21,250 bases of DNA, from IMG/VR virus record IMGVR_UViG_2609459795_000004. The stretch is one strand, 5' to 3'. The stretch's first letter is position 1; the number at the start of each line of letters is the position of its first letter. The notes below the pieces were generated by a model. It was given only the letters and a program-made list of their open reading frames with translations, was not told where the DNA came from and did no database searches. This document shows positions 902-21,250 of this stretch, one piece after another. Made by a program: the position numbers and the translations under genes. Source of the stretch: a virus. Its lineage: Duplodnaviria > Heunggongvirae > Uroviricota > Caudoviricetes.

Positions 902-3900
902 TCAACGAATACTGATGCCGGAAGCGGCTTTTTTGGTCACAATCACCGTACAGTCGGTGATATTGCCTGCCCCCTGATTGCCTTTCTGGAAAATCTTAAA
1001 CTCCAGAGTGACGCTTCCCCTGCCACTCGGCATATCAATAACTGCACTGTAACTACCGGGAATGGCCCCTTTAGTTTCTCTGGATGCGATTAATACGCCG
1101 TTTTTGCGAACTTCAAAACCATAACCCGTGTATCGCGTGCCTCCCGGGTTATTTCCGCTCCCCGGATCGTCATACGCTATACCGTTAAAAATAATGGGCG
1201 GAATAATAATCTGGCGGTCAAAGTTATGATCATCGCTGATGGTGACTGTAACCGTACCGTTTGGTGTTTCCGTGTTACCCCACGTACCGACTTTTTTCGG
1301 GAAGGCTTTTGATACAGCTTTAACGAAATCTCCTCTGACCTGGGTCGCCTCCAGCATGCCCTTAATCGTACAGTTCTGGTTAATCGTGACATTGTTGAGC
1401 GTTCCTGAGTTCGCATTCACACTGCCACTGATATCCGCATTTTTCGCCGTCAGTCTCCCGTCTGATGTCAGGGAAAATGCCGGAGGATTACCGCCGCTGG
1501 TAATGGTGGGGGCCGTCAGGCGTTTCAGGAACACTTCATTCATGAATATCTGATCGCCCTGACCAACAAACATCGGTTTTGTGTTGCCATTTGCAGGATT
1601 AATCATCGCAATCCTGTCTGCCGCCAGCAGCACCTGACTCTGCATGCCGTCGGGGGTGTTCTCAATACCGACACCGATACCCGCAATATAAAGGCGTCCG
1701 TCCTGCATCTGCTGCAGCTTCACAGCCCACATGCTGTTCAGATTATTATTTGTATCAACCTGAACCTTCTGTATCTGCTGAATTGCCGCACTCTGGTCTT
1801 CCAGTTTCTTATTGACGGTCTGCGTGATTTCATTGCTGACATCCTTAATGGACGTCCTGATTTCAGCCAGGTCAGGCGCAAGCTGACCGTTATCAATCTG
1901 CGTCCACAGCTCCTGAGCCAGATGGGTTTTCCCTATCTCGCCTTTGAAAAAATCCAGATAGCCGGATGCATCATCACTCGGCTGACCAACAGCCTCCACG
2001 AATGCCGATTTGCCAACGGTGTTCACACTGCGAACGTAAAAATAATAATCATAGCCCGGCCTGATATTGATACTGGCGGCTATCCAGTACAGCCCCGTGC
2101 CAAGGTAGCGGGCTGTGGTTTCAACCTGCCTGATATCGGTAATCCGCTTTTCCGAGAACCAGAACTCAAACTGTACCGTCGGGTCATAAACGGCAAGATG
2201 CGGCGTGGCGGTTATCTGAAAATAGCCCGGCGTCAGCTCAATCCTCGACGGTGCTGCCGGTGCGGCAATCCGGAACGATACCGACGCCGGATCTCCCTGC
2301 TGCCCCCACGCATTTACCGCCCGGACTGTCAGCCTGTAGTTCCCCAGCGCCAGTTGCGTGAAGCGGTATGTGGTTTCCGTCGTCCGGGCCGTGCTGACCA
2401 GCCGCTCACTGCCGTCGTCCGCTGTTACGGTCAGACGGAGCAGGAAGCTCACGCCCTTCACCACCTTCGGTGTGTCCCAGCGCGCCAGCACCTGATATTC
2501 CCCGCTGTCTGCAGTGACTTCTGCGGTCAGGTGCTGCACCGCTGGCGGCGTGACACCGTTCACCGTGCCACTCTGTTCGCCGTCAAAGTGCGCCCCGTTA
2601 TCCACGATGGCCTCTTTTTCCGGCACATGCTGCACGGCGGTGATGGCATACGTACCGTCATCGTTCTCACGGATACTCACACAGCGGAACAGGCGCTGGC
2701 GCAGCGTCGGCAGCTTCAGCCCCCACACGCTGTATTCGGCAACGCCGTCAGGAACACGGCTCACTTTCACCTTAAGTCCGTCGGTGACGGACTGAACCTC
2801 CACGCTGACCGGATTACCACTTCCGTCAACCAGGCTTATCAGCGTGGTACCGGAGGATGGCAGCGTGATTTCACGGTCGAGCGTCAGCGTCCGGGTCTGG
2901 CTGTTCACCGCCAGCACGCGACCACCGGTGCTGATACCGGCATAGTCATCATCGCAGATTTCAATGACATCGCCCGGTACATGGCGAAGCCCTTCAGCAC
3001 CCACGCTGAAATCCACGGTCTGCGTCTCCAGCAGTTCCGTTTTAATCAGCCACAGCCCGGCGCGGTGTGCCTGCCCCCGGCTGGTACAGCCAAAGGCATC
3101 CATCTTCGTGACATTACGACCGTAACGGGCAATGGCCTGCGTATCTTCAACAAGCTCTGTCGCCGTCTCCCAGCCGTTGTCCGGGTCAATCCAGTTCACC
3201 TCAACGGCATTATGGCGGTCCTTCAGGGCGCTGAAGCTGTAGCGGAACGGCGCGCCATCATCCGGCATCACCACATTACTGCGGTTATAGGTCCACACCT
3301 TATCCGACGGTCGGTCCTGCACGAACGTCAGCGTCTGCCAGTTCCATACCGGCATACAGCGCATCGCCGAGCAGAAATCACTGAGCACATCCCACGCCTT
3401 GCGCTGTGTGGTCAGGTACGCATTACAGGTGATGCGCGGCTCCGTGCCGCCAAAGCCGTCCGGCACTGACTGGTCGCAGTACTGGCCGATGACATACAGC
3501 GCCCATTTGTCCACATCCGCCGCACCAAGACGTTTCCCCATGCCGTAGCGTGGATGGGTCAGCATATCCCACAGACACCAGGCCATGTTATTGCTGTATG
3601 CTGGCTTAAACGTTCCGTCCCAGATACCGCTGTATTGCCGAGTCTGCGGGTTATAGTTCGACGGCACCTGCAGAATACGCCCGCGCAGATGATAATTACG
3701 GCTCACCTGCTGGCTGCCGAACTGCTCCGAATCCACCTGTACGCCGACCAGTGCCGTGTTCGGGTAGCACTGTTTCACATCGATGATTTCGGTGTATGAC
3801 GACCAGAGCGTTTTGTTCTGCAGCTGGTCTGTGGTGCTGTCCGGCGTCATCCTGCGCATCCGGATATTGAACGGGCGCGGCGGCAGGTTACCCACCACCA

Positions 3901-4399
3901 CCGATGCTAGATACTGTGAGGTGGTTTTGCCTTTAATGGTGATGTCTTTTTCCGTCACCCAGCCACCATTACGCTGTATCTGAACCAGCAGGCGGACTTC
4001 CGACGGATTCCGGTCCCCCTTTGAGGTGGTTTCCACCAGTGCCTGCACACCGAAGGTAAAGCGCAGACGGTCGATGTTTGCCGACGTGATGGTCCGGGTA
4101 ATCGGCGTGTCGTACTTCACTTCCGTACCCAGCACCGTCTCGGAGCCGGAGGATTCAAATCCCTCCGGCGGTGTCTGCTCCTGCTCACCGGCCCGGAACA
4201 CCACCGTGACGCCGGATATATTGGTATTCCCCTCACTGTCCAGCACCGGCGTACTGTTCAGCAGCACGCTTTTTAATCCATCCACCGGACCTTCAACCGG
4301 CCCTTCGCTGATGGCATCGATCACACTCAGCAGCTGCGTGGACTTCAGGTTGTCCTTCGCTTCGCGCGGGGTATGCCCCTTACTGCTGCCTTTACCCAT
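902..4399 (-). CDS. J: Tail tip / central tail fibre protein J (host-specificity protein), 1165 aa
   Basis: ATG at 4397-4399 with an upstream GGAG. The N-terminal two thirds ([34 protein letters not shown]...) match lambda gpJ as I recall it. The C-terminal third differs and the protein is 1165 aa against about 1132 aa in lambda. Confidence 0.9.
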
Positions 4400-4459: not shown

Positions 4460-5101
4460 TCAGCGACCAATCACCACAACCTGACCACCATCCCCTTCGT
4501 CTGCCGTGCTGATCTCCTGAGAAACCACGCGTGACCCCACGCGCATTTCACCGTACAGAACCGGCAGAACATTGCCCTGGGCAACCATGTTATCCAGTGA
4601 AGAAAAATAGGTATTCTGTTTGCCGTTATCCGTTGTCTGTGTGCGGGGGGTTTTGGGTTTAGGGGCCAGCATCTGTGCAACACCGCCAAGCGTCATACTG
4701 GCACCGAGAGAAAACAGCAGATTACTCGCCATAATTCCTACCCCCGGCATCCATATAGCAACCGCCATAACAGCCGCCCCCAGCACAGCCTGAAACACAC
4801 CGCCACTTTTGGCTCCTGCCAGACGCGGCACGATATGGATCACGGCACCATTTTCCAGCGGCTCATTAAGACGGGCAGACAATTCGGTTTCACCTGCATC
4901 ACGCCCGGCAATGCGTACCTGGTACCAGCCGTCGCTCAGTTTCTGACGAAATGCCGGGATCTGCATGGCCAGCGCCCGGATGGCTTCGGACCCCGTTTTC
5001 ACTCGAAGGTCGATGCGGCGGCCAAATCGTTGTAAATCCCCGTAAAGGCAGATGCGTGCCATGCCCGGTGACGCCAGAGGGAGTGTGTGCGTCGCTGCCA
5101 T
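4460..5101 (-). CDS. I: Tail tip assembly protein I
   Basis: 213-aa ORF with ATG at 5099-5101 and no in-frame alternative start upstream before a stop. It overlaps the 3' end of K by 103 nt in another frame, the lambda K/I arrangement. Sequence matches my recollection of lambda gpI; I recall lambda gpI as 223 aa, so either my memory or a small indel accounts for the difference. Confidence 0.82.
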   Translation of the reverse strand: MAATHTLPLASPGMARICLYGDLQRFGRRIDLRVKTGSEAIRALAMQIPAFRQKLSDGWYQVRIAGRDAGETELSARLNEPLENGAVIHIVPRLAGAKSGGVFQAVLGAAVMAVAIWMPGVGIMASNLLFSLGASMTLGGVAQMLAPKPKTPRTQTTDNGKQNTYFSSLDNMVAQGNVLPVLYGEMRVGSRVVSQEISTADEGDGGQVVVIGR

Positions 5102-5742
5102 TTGTCGGTGTACCTCTCTCGTTTGCTCAGTTGTTCAGGAATATGGTGCAGCAGCTCGCTGTCACCACAGTAAATGGCGGCATGATTCGGCACCGATGAA
5201 CCAAAACAGCACAGCAGCACATCGCCCGGCTGCGCCGCTGACAACGGCACCTGATACAGCCCTGTGGCCTCCAGATTATCCAGATAGAGATTCTGACCGT
5301 TACGCCACCAGTCATCCCCGCGATGAAAATCCGGCATCTCAATTCCCGCCAGATGGTAAGCGTCCCGGAACAGCGTGTAACAGTCCGTTACCCCGTGCTC
5401 AAAGCGCCGCCCGGTGAGATGCGGCACACAGCGGAACTTATGAATCGTCCCCCGGCAGACCAGCCACCACGGCAAATCACTCTGCACCTGCAGCCGCCGG
5501 TCGGCCTCACTCAGCCAGGGCAGACCACCGGGGTGGCTGTGGACCAGCGCCACAATCTCACCCTGCATTTCTGCCTGCAGCCAGTCTTCCGGCGACATAC
5601 GGAAATACGCCTCCGGCTCACCGGAGATATTCACGCAGGGAAAATATCTTTCCCCCTCCGGCGTGCTTACCACGAAGCCGCACGACTCCGCTGGCGCACA
5701 TCGCCGGGCGTGCGCCAGAATCGCTGATTCTGTCTGTGTCAT
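4999..5742 (-). CDS. K: Tail tip assembly protein K (MPN/JAMM plus NlpC/P60 type), called from the ATG 4 nt after the L stop; lambda's canonical 199-aa form would start at 5598
   Basis: Contains the JAMM-like motif HSHPGGLPWLSEAD and a C-terminal region with the Cys/His pattern of NlpC/P60 peptidases. The frame is open upstream of the canonical Met (MSPEDWLQAE...). ATG at 5740-5742 (MTQTESAIL...) follows the L stop (5747-5749) by 4 nt. The track's 5784 start is a TTG inside L and is unlikely. Confidence 0.78.
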   Translation of the reverse strand: MTQTESAILAHARRCAPAESCGFVVSTPEGERYFPCVNISGEPEAYFRMSPEDWLQAEMQGEIVALVHSHPGGLPWLSEADRRLQVQSDLPWWLVCRGTIHKFRCVPHLTGRRFEHGVTDCYTLFRDAYHLAGIEMPDFHRGDDWWRNGQNLYLDNLEATGLYQVPLSAAQPGDVLLCCFGSSVPNHAAIYCGDSELLHHIPEQLSKRERYTDKWQRRTHSLWRHRAWHASAFTGIYNDLAAASTFE

Positions 5743-6774: not shown

Positions 6775-9332
6775 CGTCCACCTCCGGAGAACAGGCCACC
6801 ATCACGCATCTGTGTCTGAATTTCATCACGGGCACCCTTGCGGGCCATGTCATACACCGCCTTCAGAGCAGCCGGACCTATCTGCCCGTTCGTGCCGTCG
6901 TTGTTAATCACCACATGGTTATTCTGCTCAAACGTCCCGGACGCCTGCGACCGGCTGTCTGCCATGCTGCCCGGTGTACCGACATAACCGCCGGTGGCAT
7001 AGCCGCGCATCAGCCGGTAAAGATTCCCCACGCCAATCCGGCTGGTTGCCTCCTTCGTGAAGACAAACTCACCACGGTGAACAATCCCCGCTGGCTCATA
7101 TTTGCCGCCGGTTCCCGTAAATCCTCCGGTTGCAAAATGGAATTTCGCCGCAGCGGCCTGAATGGCTGTACCGCCTGACGCGGATGCGCCGCCACCAACA
7201 GCCCCGCCAATGGCGCTGCCGATACTCCCGACAATCCCCACCATTGCCTGCTTAAGCAGAATTTCTGTCATCATGGACAGCACGGAGCGGGTGAAGCTGC
7301 GCCAGTTCTGTTCACTGCCGGTCAGCATCGCCGCCATATTCTGCGCAATACCATCAAAGGTCTGCGTGGCAGCACTTTTAACCTGCGACATACTGTCCGT
7401 GGCACTCTCTTTCCACTCGCTCCAGCCGGACCTGAGGCCTGCCATCCAGCTCCCGCGAAGCAGGTCTTCAGCCGCCCAGGTCTTTTTCTGCTCTGACATG
7501 ACGTTATTCAGCGCCAGAGGATTATCGCCATACTGTTCCTTCAGGCGCTGTTCCGTGGCTTCCCGTTCTGCCTGCCGGTCAGTCAGCCCCCGGCTTTTCG
7601 CATCAATAGCGGCCCGTTTTGCCCGTTGCTGCTGTGCGAATTTATCCGCCTGCTGCGCCAGCGCGTTCAGGCGCTCCTGATACGTAACCTTGTCGCCAAG
7701 TGCAGCCAACTGGCGTTTATACTCCAGCGTCTCATCTTTATGCGCCAGCAGGGATTTCTCCTGTGCAGACAGCTGGCGACGTTGCGCCGCCTCCTCCAGT
7801 ACCGCGAACTGACTCTCCGCCTTCCACAAATCCCGGCGCTGCTGGCTGATTTTCTCATTTGCTCCGGCATGCTTCTCCAGCGTCCGGAGTTCAGCCTGAA
7901 GCGTCAGCAGGGCAGCATGAGCACTGTCTTCCTGACGATCGCCCGCAGACACCTTCACGCCGGACTGTTTCGGCTTTTTCAGCGTCGCTTCATAGTCCTT
8001 TTTCGCCGCCGCCATCAGCGTGTTGTAATCTGCCTGCAGGATTTTCCCGTCTTTCAGTGCCTTATTCAGTTCTTCCTGACGGGCGGTATATTTCTCCAGC
8101 GGCGTCTGCAGGCGTTCGTAAGCCTTCTGCGTCTCTTCGGTGTATTTCAGCCGTGACGCTTCGGTATCGCTCTGCTGCTGCGCATTTTTGTCCTGTTGAC
8201 TCTGCTGCTCAGCCTTCTTTCGGGCGGCTTCAAGCGCAAGACGGGCCTTTTCACGATCATCCCAGTAACGCGCCCGCGCTTCATCGTTAACAAAATAATC
8301 ATCCTTGCGCAGATTCCAGATGTCGTCTGCTTTCTTAAACGCAGCCTCTGCCTTAATCAGCATCTCCTGCGCGGTATCAGGACGACCAATATCCAGCACC
8401 GCATCCCACATGGATTTGAATGCCCGCGCTGTCCTGTCTGCCCAGGTCTCCAGCGTGCCCATGTTCTCTTTCAGGCGGCGGGTCTGGTCATCAAACCCTT
8501 TCGTTGCGGCCTCGTTCGCCGCCTGCAATGCCCCGGCTTCATCGCCGGAACGCTGCAACTGAGCAACATACGCAATCTGCTCCGCCGTCACGTTATGGAA
8601 CTGGCGTGCCATCGCCGTCAGCCCCGACGTCGGGTCTGTGGTCAGCTTCCCGAAGGCTTCAGCGACCTTGTCCACCTCCACGCCGGATGCAGAGGAGAAA
8701 CGCGCCACACTCTGGCTGATGGACGCAATCTGAGCCTCACCGCTTACCCCCGCCTTAACCAGTGCGCTGAGTGACTCGCTGGTCTGGTTAAACGTCAGCC
8801 CTGCCGCCTGCCCGGCTCTGGACAGGACCAGCATACGATCTGCCGTCAGTCCCGCCTGATTGCCGGAAAGGACCAGCGTTTTGTTGAAATCGGACAGGGT
8901 TGAGTTACCCTGATACCAGGCATACGCCAGCGCACCGGTCGCCACCGCCAGCGAGGTGGCCCCGACCATCGGCAGGGTGATCGCACCGGCAAGCCCCCGG
9001 AACATGGGGATCATCCCGCCGAAGGAGTCCTTAACCTGACCACCCTGTTGCAGCAGGATCAGCCACGGGCTTTGCCCGCCTGCAAGCTGCGTGGCCACGT
9101 CGGTGAACTGTGCAGGCAGCATACGCATGGCGGCTTTATACTGCCCGACGGAAATCCCCGCTTTCTGTGCAGCCAGCGCCTGTCGGCTCAGCGACTGTTC
9201 AACGACTGCCGCTGTTTTTTTCGCATCAGTTTCCGTACCGGAAAAATGACGCCTGACTCTGGCCATCTGCTCGTCAAATCTGGCCGCATCCAGACTTAAA
9301 TCAACGACCAGATCGCCTACCGGTTCAGCCAT
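6771..9332 (-). CDS. H: Tail tape-measure protein H
   Basis: 853 aa, the same length as lambda gpH; matches my recollection along its length (MAEPVGDLVVDLSLDAARFDEQMARVRRHF... ending ...MRDGGLFSGGGR). ATG at 9330-9332. Confidence 0.93.
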   Translation of the reverse strand: MAEPVGDLVVDLSLDAARFDEQMARVRRHFSGTETDAKKTAAVVEQSLSRQALAAQKAGISVGQYKAAMRMLPAQFTDVATQLAGGQSPWLILLQQGGQVKDSFGGMIPMFRGLAGAITLPMVGATSLAVATGALAYAWYQGNSTLSDFNKTLVLSGNQAGLTADRMLVLSRAGQAAGLTFNQTSESLSALVKAGVSGEAQIASISQSVARFSSASGVEVDKVAEAFGKLTTDPTSGLTAMARQFHNVTAEQIAYVAQLQRSGDEAGALQAANEAATKGFDDQTRRLKENMGTLETWADRTARAFKSMWDAVLDIGRPDTAQEMLIKAEAAFKKADDIWNLRKDDYFVNDEARARYWDDREKARLALEAARKKAEQQSQQDKNAQQQSDTEASRLKYTEETQKAYERLQTPLEKYTARQEELNKALKDGKILQADYNTLMAAAKKDYEATLKKPKQSGVKVSAGDRQEDSAHAALLTLQAELRTLEKHAGANEKISQQRRDLWKAESQFAVLEEAAQRRQLSAQEKSLLAHKDETLEYKRQLAALGDKVTYQERLNALAQQADKFAQQQRAKRAAIDAKSRGLTDRQAEREATEQRLKEQYGDNPLALNNVMSEQKKTWAAEDLLRGSWMAGLRSGWSEWKESATDSMSQVKSAATQTFDGIAQNMAAMLTGSEQNWRSFTRSVLSMMTEILLKQAMVGIVGSIGSAIGGAVGGGASASGGTAIQAAAAKFHFATGGFTGTGGKYEPAGIVHRGEFVFTKEATSRIGVGNLYRLMRGYATGGYVGTPGSMADSRSQASGTFEQNNHVVINNDGTNGQIGPAALKAVYDMARKGARDEIQTQMRDGGLFSGGGR

Positions 9333-12273: not shown

Positions 12274-12669
12274 TTATTGCATTCTGGCCAGGCCACGTTC
12301 TGTCATTTCGGCTGCCACACCGGCAGAGACACGAAACGCCGTTCCCGGCAGCACAAATGCCACAGGTTCATCCCGCGTGGCGTGAAGTGCATCGGTATGC
12401 AGCGTCACCAGTGCCACAACCGTGACCAGAGCAGCCGTATCAGTCACGGTATCCGTCTGTGCTGATACCACCTCATTTTCATGTCCGGTCAGCGCATTTT
12501 CCGGTCTGAGAGGGGTATCCTGACCGGCAGCGTCATCCGTGTCATCAAGCTCTTCTTCCAGCTCTGCCACACGGAGCGCCAGTTCTTCTTTCGTCCCCGT
12601 CAGGCTGACATCACGGTTCAGTTGCTCACCCAGCGACCGGAGACGGGCAATCAGTTCATCTTTCGTCAT
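12274..12669 (-). CDS. FI: DNA packaging / head assembly protein FI
   Basis: Matches lambda gpFI from MTKDELIARLRSLGEQLNRDVSLTGTKEELALRVAELEEELDD.... I chose the ATG at 12667-12669, which has a GGAGGAG ribosome-binding site just upstream; the track's 12708 start adds 13 unsupported codons. Confidence 0.9.
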   Translation of the reverse strand: MTKDELIARLRSLGEQLNRDVSLTGTKEELALRVAELEEELDDTDDAAGQDTPLRPENALTGHENEVVSAQTDTVTDTAALVTVVALVTLHTDALHATRDEPVAFVLPGTAFRVSAGVAAEMTERGLARMQ

Positions 12670-12710
12670 GGACTCCTCCACAGAGAGAAAATGGCCCCGA
12701 AGGGCCACGA

Positions 12711-15453: not shown

Positions 15454-19134
<3,681 letters not shown>

Positions 19135-19160
<26 letters not shown>

Positions 19161-19680
19161 TCAGCAACCCCGGTATCAGTTCATCCAGCGCGGCTGCTTT
19201 GTTCATGGCTTTGATGATATCCCGTTTCAGGAAATCAACATGTCGGTTTTCCAGTTCCGGAAAACGCCGCTGCACCGACAGGGGGATCCCGTCGAGAATA
19301 CTGGCAATTTCACCTGCGATCCGCGACAGCACGAAAGTACAGAATGCGGTTTCCACCACTTCAGCGGAGTCTCTGGCATTTTTCAGCTCCTGTGCGTCGG
19401 CCTGCGCACGCGTAAGTCGATGGCGTTCGTACTCAATAGTCCCTGGCTGGAGATCTGTCTCGCTGGCCTGCCGCAGTTCTTCAACTTCCCGGCGCAGCTT
19501 TTCGTTCTCAATTTCAGCATCCCTTTCGGCATACCATTTTATGACGGCGGCAGAGTCATAAAGCACCTCATTACCCTTGCCACCGCCTCGCAGAACGGGC
19601 ATTCCCTGTTCCTGCCAGTTCTGAATGGTACGGATACTCGCACCGAAAATGTCAGCCAGCTGCTTTTTGTTGACTTCCAT
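19135..19680 (-). CDS. nu1: Terminase small subunit Nu1
   Basis: 181 aa, MEVNKKQLADIFGASIRTIQNWQEQGMPVLRGGGKGNEVLYDSAAVIKWYAERD..., matching lambda gpNu1, with the N-terminal winged helix-turn-helix that binds cosB. ATG at 19678-19680. Confidence 0.93.
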
Positions 19681-19689
19681 TGTTCATTC

Positions 19690-19857
19690 CACGGACAAAA
19701 ACAGAGAAAGGAAACGACAGAGGCCCAAAAGCTCGCTTTCAGCACCTGTCGTTTCCTTTCTTTTCAGAGGGTATTTTAAATAAAAACATTAAGTTATGAC
19801 GAAGAAGAACGGAAACGCCTTAAACCGGAAAATTTTCATAAATAGCGAAAACCCGCG
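19690..19857 (-). other. cosB, the terminase (gpNu1) binding region with R1, R2 and R3 elements and an intervening AT-rich IHF-type site
   Basis: Three copies of the GGAAACG core sit in the arrangement I recall for lambda R1/R2/R3: AAAGGAAACGACAG (about 19709-19722), its inverse CTGTCGTTTCCTTT (about 19746-19759), and CGGAAACGCC (about 19810-19819). An AT-rich block at about 19775-19800 lies between R2 and R3. The region is the reverse complement of the lambda left-end sequence as I recall it. Confidence 0.8.
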
Positions 19858-19869
19858 AGGTCGCCGCCC
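19858..19869. other. cosN, the 12-nt cohesive-end sequence (terminase nicking site) at the junction of the mature-genome left and right ends
   Basis: Top strand AGGTCGCCGCCC is the reverse complement of GGGCGGCGACCT, the lambda cohesive end. The flanking 19870-19900 (CGTAACCTGTCGGATCGCCGGAAAGGACCCG) is the reverse complement of the lambda right-end terminus as I recall it, which should include cosQ. Confidence 0.85.
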
Positions 19870-20068
19870 CGTAACCTGTCGGATCGCCGGAAAGGACCCG
19901 CAAAATGATAATAATTATCATCTACATGTCACAACGTGCATCTACGCCATCAAACCACGTCAAATAATCAATTATGACGCAGGTATCGTATTAATTGATC
20001 TGCATCAACTTAACGTAAAAACAACTTCAGACAATACAAATCAGTGACACTGAATACAGGGCAACCTC

Positions 20069-20302
20069 ATGTCAACGAAGAACAGAACCCGCAGAACAAC
20101 AACCCGCAACATCCGCTTTCCTAACCAAATGATTGAACAAATTAACATCGCTCTTGATCAAAAAGGGTCCGGGAATTTCTCAGCCTGGGTCATTGAAGCC
20201 TGCCGCCGGAGACTGTGCTCAGAAAAAAGAGTTTCTCCTGAAGCAAACAAAGAAAAGAGTGACATTACTGAATTGCTCAGAAAACAGGTCAGACCAGATT
20301 GA
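20069..20302 (+). CDS. Small basic hypothetical protein (77 aa), possibly a ribbon-helix-helix DNA-binding protein; accessory ORF just right of cos
   Basis: ATG at 20069-20071 with a 77-codon frame. The N-terminus is Arg/Thr-rich (MSTKNRTRRTTTRNIRFPNQMIEQINIALDQKGSGNFSAWVIEACRRRL), with a pattern of a short strand then two helices that suggests an Arc/CopG-like fold. The fold is my inference from the sequence. Weak ribosome-binding site. Confidence 0.5.
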   Translation: MSTKNRTRRTTTRNIRFPNQMIEQINIALDQKGSGNFSAWVIEACRRRLCSEKRVSPEANKEKSDITELLRKQVRPD

Positions 20303-20359
20303 AGCAATTTAGATAATCGTGCAGACTACGCCCCATCATATCACATGGAAGGTACTACA

Positions 20360-20770
20360 ATGGCTCAGGTTGCCATTTTTAAACAAATATTCGATAAAGT
20401 GCGAAATAATTTAAACTATCACTGGTTTTATTCTGAACTAAAACGTCACAATGTCTCACATTACATTTACTATTTAGCCACAGAGAATATTCATCTTGTT
20501 CTTGAAAACGATAATACGGTTTTAATAAAAGGACAGGGTAAGGTTGTAAATGTAAGATTTTCAAAAAATAAATGCCTTATAGAAGCCACCTTAAAAGGAT
20601 TCAAATCAGGAGAGTTATCATTTTACGAATACAGGAAAAATCTTGCTACAGCAGGGGTTTTCAGATGGATTACAAATATCCACGAAAACAAAAGGTATTA
20701 CTATACCTTTGATAATTCATTACTATTTACTGAGAACATTCAGAACACTACACAAATATTTCCGCACTAA
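20360..20770 (+). CDS. AT-rich hypothetical protein (136 aa), resembling the YbcV-type small prophage proteins found near the packaging genes of lambdoid prophages; function unknown
   Basis: ATG at 20360-20362 preceded by GGAAGG with a 7-nt spacer; the track's start at 20345 lacks a ribosome-binding site. The gene is visibly AT-rich and stands out from the GC-rich structural module. [45 protein letters not shown]... resembles E. coli DLP12 YbcV as I recall it. No signal peptide or transmembrane segment. Confidence 0.6.
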
Positions 20771-20848
20771 ATCATAACGTCCGGTTTCTTCCGCGCCAGA
20801 ACCGGACTCGCTGGCATGATGAAATATGTGTACTCGGTAACCCCGGTG

Positions 20849-21250
20849 GTAAGCGTAAAGCCAATGCCGTCTGTAACACCTGCTCCTTGCAGACTAAATT
20901 AGAGCTCCTTCTAAATTAGACGGAGTTCTATTGATGGATAAACCTACAGACTGGCGCTCCGGAACCCGCCGGATATTTTCTAATGAATTTAAACTTCATA
21001 TGGTTGAACTGGCTTCGAAACCAAATGCCAATGTTGCACAACTGGCCCGGGAACATGGCGTTGATAACAACCTGATTTTTAAATGGCTACGCCTCTGGCA
21101 AAGAGAAGGACGTATTTCTCGTAGAATGCCTCCAACTATTGTAGGCCCTACAGTATCACAATCTTTTCCGACCTCTCCGACTCTGGTTCCAGTGGAACTT
21201 ATCGACACCCCGCGCTGTGCTACAGATGCTCCTGCTCCGGAGGCATTATC
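20849..21250 (+). mobile_element. Probable insertion sequence (IS66-family-like), left end only, truncated by the window edge
   Basis: GTAAGCG at 20849-20855 matches the typical start of IS66-family terminal inverted repeats. About 85 bp downstream an ORF begins with an N-terminal helix-turn-helix of the kind found in IS accessory (OrfA/TnpA) proteins. The sharp boundary immediately after the phage accessory gene fits an insertion. Family assignment is from memory. Confidence 0.55.
20934..21250 (+). CDS. IS accessory protein (TnpA/OrfA-like, helix-turn-helix), 3'-truncated by the window end
   Basis: ATG at 20934-20936 and an open frame to the window end (105 codons, no stop): MDKPTDWRSGTRRIFSNEFKLHMVELASKPNANVAQLAREHGVDNNLIFKWLRLWQREGRISRR.... 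The pattern RxFSxEFK ... VAxLARxHGV ... LxxWxR is the N-terminal HTH signature of IS transposase OrfA proteins. Absent from the ORF track because it has no stop in the window. Confidence 0.6.
   Translation, partial: MDKPTDWRSGTRRIFSNEFKLHMVELASKPNANVAQLAREHGVDNNLIFKWLRLWQREGRISRRMPPTIVGPTVSQSFPTSPTLVPVELIDTPRCATDAPAPEAL

Follow-up and report, generated by a model that had tools for sequence, protein, structure and literature searches.

The window, by which we mean the whole 21,250-nt stretch of viral DNA that was analysed, runs from lom to an IS66-family element, and the early half of the element to which it belongs (attL/attR, repressor, replication, Q, and lysis genes) lies outside these 21 kb. 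Two terminase genes are found on its minus strand: nu1 (19135-19680), which encodes a small subunit of 181 aa (Pfam Phage_Nu1, E = 3.9e-101), and A (17235-19160), which encodes a large subunit of 641 aa, has a GTG start as in lambda, and matches the Pfam families GpA_ATPase and GpA_nuclease. Nu1 is 98.9% identical to its lambda counterpart, from which it differs only by A75T and L132I; it matches lambda throughout residues 1-74, among them the recognition helix (17-24) and the wing (31-39) that are named in PMC9026076, and no change falls in the DNA-binding domain. The large subunit, gpA, is 99.7% identical, with the two differences T151S and D185E. All 21 late proteins from Nu1 to J align to lambda over their full length at 80-100% identity, with neither a frameshift nor a stop in the 19.8 kb that they occupy, and the slippery heptamer of G-T is conserved.

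Several of the late genes depart from lambda over part or all of their length. J (902-4399) encodes 1165 aa versus 1132 aa in lambda; over its first ~780 residues identity stays at 92-100% in each block of 100, and over its last ~370 (especially window ~902-2000) it is only 23-77%, with indels, which suggests that the J C-terminus may form a receptor-binding domain different from the LamB-binding one of lambda. The Lom-like outer-membrane protein (232-831) is 46% identical to lambda Lom among flanking genes at 80-100%, and lom looks like a mosaic replacement. FI (12274-12708; 90% identity to lambda, 1 gap) and I (4460-5101; 80% identity, 10 gaps) have neighbours at 96-100% identity and, on these values, are further small mosaic patches.

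The cos site and its subsites

On the plus strand, positions 19858-19869 read AGGTCGCCGCCC, the reverse complement of the 12-nt cohesive end of lambda, GGGCGGCGACCT, which has no other match in the window when up to one mismatch is allowed. At this stringency a match also arose in 19 of 100 shuffles; the 12-mer is therefore by itself weak evidence, and the surrounding context is decisive. The first-pass annotation had placed an intact cosQ-cosN-cosB junction inside the window and had named alignment to the lambda genome ends as the check; we aligned the reverse complement of 19570-20370 to NC_001416 positions 48003-48502 joined to 1-300. The segment aligns to lambda cos on the minus strand, and the joined-end alignment bears out the junction, whose placement had been exact. 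Lambda bp 1-137, which comprise the left end, I2, R3, I1, and R2, are identical in the window without a gap or mismatch; one 1-bp gap in the window follows at lambda 138 and one substitution, T145G, at lambda 145 (window 19726), after which identity resumes and continues through the nu1 start to nu1 codon 37. On the other side of the cohesive end, lambda 48158-48502 corresponds to window 19870-20214 with 13 substitutions and no indels over 345 bp (96% identity), and similarity to lambda ceases above window 20214, i.e., to the left of lambda 48158. Since the two lambda ends are joined inside the window at 19858-19869, the sequence is not an end-to-end read of linear virion DNA, a point that had also been made from the sequence at first reading and that is true by construction.

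The cosQ heptamer, GGGTCCT (19893-19899, minus strand), corresponds to lambda 48473-48479, coordinates that we take to be those of Wieczorek and Feiss 2001, and is unchanged in the alignment; the nearest substitutions, at lambda 48471 and 48486, both fall outside the heptamer, and with no indel between cosQ and cosN the lambda distance is kept. A literature search for the sequence of the cosQ heptamer returned nothing relevant; cosQ is described as a highly conserved site of 7 bp (PMC4669245). The nicking site cosN (approximately 19853-19874, to which no strand is assigned) contains the 12-nt cohesive end and is identical to lambda, its extent of ~22 bp and two-fold symmetry being those given in PMC4856287. 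From the ends of NC_001416, nicks are predicted between 19869 and 19870 on the minus strand and between 19857 and 19858 on the plus strand. Between cosN and cosB lies I2 (19820-19852, minus strand), an A/T-rich segment with an intrinsic bend that is identical to lambda bp 18-50, the rough extent assigned to it, together with its role, in PMC4856287.

Within cosB, the critical TerS-binding site R3 (19805-19820, minus strand) reads AGGCGTTTCCGTTCTT and is identical to lambda bp 50-65, the position reported for R3 in the same work that describes an identical 16-mer shared by R2 and R1 (PMC9026076). The spacing from cosN to R3 is that of lambda in the alignment, and a deletion of even 3 bp from this interval is severely defective (PMC9026076). 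The I1 segment, with the IHF site (19762-19804, minus strand), is identical to lambda bp 66-108 and was placed in the window by this identity and by its published location between R3 and R2 (PMC4669245). R2 (19746-19761, plus strand; lambda 109-124) is the exact 16-mer CTGTCGTTTCCTTTCT, inverted relative to R3 and R1, and is followed by an R2-R1 spacer (19721-19745, minus strand) that holds T145G and the apparent 1-bp deletion relative to position 138 of NC_001416. R1 (19705-19720, minus strand; NC_001416 151-166) is an accessory TerS site (PMC4669245) and is again an exact 16-mer, such that R1 and R2 are exact 16-bp inverted copies of each other. At up to three mismatches the R 16-mer has three matches in the window, namely R1, R2, and a three-mismatch site at 8320-8335, and no shuffle reached three matches. 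The order R3-I1-R2-R1 with R2 inverted, by which lambda packaging specificity is recognised, is thus present in full.

The functional cos cassette spans lambda 48446-182, or 238 bp (PMC4856287), and its equivalent in the window, 19689-19926, contains five real substitutions, none of which falls in cosQ, cosN, I2, R3, I1, R2, or R1. Of these, the four that lie toward cosQ (within lambda 48446-48502) all recur in the phages Chlobot and PhiR11_1, which suggests that they would be compatible with a working cos. The site is an ordinary uncut lambda-type cos beside its terminase genes, correctly recognised at first reading and already known. The same reading had held that the packaging apparatus looks functional, and our comparison agrees: the cos subsites, the cosN-R3 spacing, the DNA-binding domain of Nu1, and gpA are identical or nearly identical to those of lambda, and on this likeness the apparatus looks functional and cos would be competent for cleavage.

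The nu1 spacing and the T145G allele

The nu1 ATG at window 19680 falls at lambda-equivalent position 190, versus 191 in NC_001416. Small indels in the cosB spacer had been suspected in the first-pass annotation, together with a nu1 start one base off the lambda position; the one-base offset stands relative to NC_001416, but the indels reduce to a single gap that is a peculiarity of the reference. The G at lambda 138 is missing as well from three further lambda records (DE3, PV340536.1, and KT232076.1), from Chlobot and PhiR11_1, and from a prophage of E. coli MB56, and because other lambda records and relatives lack it, the 1-bp gap is a quirk of NC_001416 and not of the window. In DE3, PV340536.1, and KT232076.1, cos and the nu1 start are as far apart as in the window.

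The gap at lambda 138 falls at window 19733/19734, and the window also carries an extra G after lambda 14266 (window ~5610). With this G, gene K (window 4999-5742) encodes 247 aa versus the 199 aa annotated in NC_001416, and 247 aa is also the length given to K by PGAP annotation in prophages. The two single-base discrepancies compensate each other, and positions counted on NC_001416 from bp 138 to ~14266 are shifted by one. Published corrections to the lambda sequence presumably list exactly these changes, at 138 and 14266; a literature search for documentation of the two discrepancies found nothing, and the point rests on the sequence comparisons.

In the left arm of cos, no base other than T145G (window 19726) sets the window apart from other lambda-type sequences. 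The exact 60-mer that carries T145G was found in 7 of the 3708 E. coli records (complete genomes) that hold the block, which makes it a rare allele. A search for the exact allele across one genome per species gave no matches, and the same search with an N at that base recovered Escherichia coli, E. albertii, and many unrelated taxa. It is very improbable that T145G or the nearby IS66-family element alters packaging or late-gene expression in such a way that the locus would represent a natural cos/late-operon variant with a changed packaging efficiency.

The right-end flank and the relatives of the window

The right-end homology to lambda (19870-20214, minus strand; lambda 48158-48502) is identical to Chlobot and PhiR11_1 up to window 19957, the stretch that was compared. 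The first gene on the right-end side, which belongs to the flank and not to cos, is a DUF3950 (YlcI/YnfO family) gene of 77 aa (20069-20302, plus strand; Pfam DUF3950, E = 5.4e-21), and YlcI/YnfO is annotated at the same place in E. coli prophages. A mosaic breakpoint with lambda lies within this ORF at 20215 (lambda 48157/48158), after approximately codon 48, such that of the two parts only the N-terminal one resembles lambda; the lambda ORF is unannotated in NC_001416. A DUF1398 gene (20345-20770), identified by its Pfam match, lies beyond it. An 83-aa ORF (19796-20047) spans cosN, and several deposited phage genomes list its equivalent as a "hypothetical protein" (Chlobot CDS0083, PhiR11_1); it has no Pfam match, and we rejected it as a gene, because cleavage at cos would cut the ORF in two, and consider an annotation artefact very likely. 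Rfam gave no matches anywhere in the window.

The left end of the IS66-family element occupies 20849-21250, beginning 980 bp from cosN; its terminal repeat starts with GTAAGCG, and it contains a tnpA-like ORF (HTH_Tnp_1) that opens at 20934 and runs off the window, and is 99.5% identical to an element annotated as ISEc47-family in E. coli 602354. No ORF of at least 40 aa spans 20778-20927, and the insertion appears to be intergenic, downstream of the DUF1398 gene; judging by relatives, it would sit between that gene and the lysis genes. The position of the element corresponds to the interior of lambda's late transcription unit, and the element lengthens the genome to be packaged, for which the limits in lambda are roughly 38-52 kb. 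An IS66-family insertion at the equivalent of 20849 was absent in the relatives inspected. The IS stretch itself matched 2044 places on chromosomes and 215 on plasmids, and the copy that was examined is chromosomal.

Of 5426 complete E. coli genomes, 3693 (68%) contain the cosB block, in up to five copies each, and where copies were examined they were always inside integrated lambdoid prophages. Lambdoid phages match the window as a whole with a coverage of up to 97% and an identity of ~97-98%, and 3029 of the 5426 complete E. coli genomes match it at a coverage of at least 80%; among complete E. coli assemblies, none of which gives an identical match, the best reach ~97-98% identity over 20.8 kb. 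In three chromosomes that were inspected, cos is internal and the order is lysis genes, cos, nu1, and head and tail genes to J; the order int-xis...cI...Q is complete in the prophage of WP2-W18-CRE-03, and in the other two the early region is seen in part. An internal position of cos is expected in any prophage, since att lies mid-genome in lambda biology.

Among the closest relatives around cos are the phages Chlobot (PP925838.1), which was isolated from puddle water, and PhiR11_1 (PV340547.1), recorded with E. coli K-12 MG1655 as its host, together with the DLP12-like lambdoid prophages of E. coli chromosomes, such as those of MB56 and WP2-W18-CRE-03. These are 99.5-99.7% identical to the window over 19500-20100, are identical on the cosQ side, and share the order A, nu1, cos, YlcI-like gene, DUF1398, but have an A instead of a C at the equivalent of window 19726; the DLP12-like chromosomal prophages match the window at ~97% over 20.8 kb. 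Lambda has an identical cohesive end, cosN, cosQ, I2, R3, I1, R2, and R1, but its right arm carries lambdap79, lambdap78, and bor where the window has the DUF3950 C-terminus, DUF1398, and the IS66-family element. Phage 21, N15, and phage-inducible chromosomal islands (PICIs) share the lambda-like 12-nt cohesive end, the cosQ/cosN layout, and a downstream terS or rpp (PMC4669245, PMC9026076). They differ from the window on the cosB side: phage 21 in its R sequences and TerS recognition helix, N15 in having a single R site and no IHF site, and PICIs in having an rpp gene and no phage cosB. The window belongs to the lambda specificity group because it contains lambda's own R sites and Nu1 helix. 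Assemblies of unrelated bacteria, among them Kitasatospora, Bradyrhizobium, Paenibacillus, Pseudomonas, Shewanella, and a cyanobacterium, also contain the lambda-type R2-R1 block; a length of ~48.4-48.5 kb or a coverage of ~1x in several of the contigs concerned points to contamination by lambda control DNA and not to real prophages.

Source of the junction and its place in packaging

Taken from sequence comparison, the junction is very probably the uncut cos of a lambda-like temperate phage with lambda packaging specificity, carried on the minus strand and most likely part of a prophage in an Escherichia chromosome. A chromosomal prophage is favoured because an IS66-family element starts at 20849. 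An integrated prophage was among the sources named in the first-pass annotation and emerges as the likeliest of them, given relatives that are integrated in the order int...cI...Q...lysis...cos...nu1...J and the IS66-family element 980 bp away.

Such a prophage might have kept an intact cos and yet be cryptic or defective, in which case the site would never be cut by its own phage and would persist as a relic or as a target for the terminase of a co-resident lambdoid phage. We consider this unlikely, although it is the most probable of the alternatives: the IS66-family insertion lies 980 bp from cosN within the lambda-equivalent late transcription unit, E. coli genomes hold up to five copies of the cosB block, many lambdoid prophages are riddled with IS elements and pseudogenes, and the early half beyond the window could be where a defect lies. 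The 21 full-length late genes in 19.8 kb, without a frameshift or stop, argue against advanced decay, however, and terminase genes less than 1.2% diverged from lambda and an IS that appears to be intergenic, downstream of a DUF1398 gene that ends at 20770, also speak against a cryptic element. It is less probable again that the window derives not from an integrated prophage but from replicating or concatemeric DNA, or from a free phage record or circular assembly whose start point is arbitrary. Many records of lambdoid phages hold cos internally (at ~44.4 of 46.5 kb in Chlobot and at ~20 kb in the PhiR series), and one, PhiR70_1, lists a transposase (InsG); yet among the phage records listed none covers the window beyond 20848, the best reaching 97% coverage, and the IS stretch matches mostly chromosomes and partly plasmids, with a chromosomal location for the copy examined. 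The IS makes a free-phage origin less likely, and the window has no decisive marker either way.

There is next to no chance that the cos copy lies outside a phage proper, whether in a PICI, in a fragment of a cosmid vector, or in contaminating lambda control DNA, even though PICIs carry lambda-like cosQ and cosN (PMC6739421, PMC9026076) and lambda control DNA contaminates unrelated bacterial assemblies. We rejected a PICI on the presence of R3, R2, and R1 and on a downstream gene that is nu1 (Phage_Nu1) and not rpp, a cosmid fragment on the 19.8 kb of contiguous late genes, and lambda itself or contamination on a divergence of ~2-3%, a different J C-terminus, and differences in lom and in the genes beyond 20215.

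For an uncut cos in a lambda-like prophage, packaging would be expected to follow the mechanism established for lambda (PMC4669245, PMC4856287, PMC9026076). The anchored gpA would nick cosN at positions 12 bases apart (minus strand, 19869/19870; plus strand, 19857/19858), and the terminase would stay on the nu1-side (cosB) end and dock on the portal. DNA would then be pumped into the prohead toward lower coordinates, i.e., through nu1, A, the head genes, and the tail genes and onward, until the following cos of the concatemer is reached, where cosQ (19893-19899), cosN, and I2 would direct the terminating cut.

The cos site fixes the orientation of the prophage and the phase of its genome, a result of little weight beyond annotation, and the termini of its virions are predicted at 19857/19858 and 19869/19870. 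As a member of the lambda specificity group, the element could exchange cos-bearing DNA with lambda-specific phages or act as a helper, and it could be exploited by cos-type PICIs.
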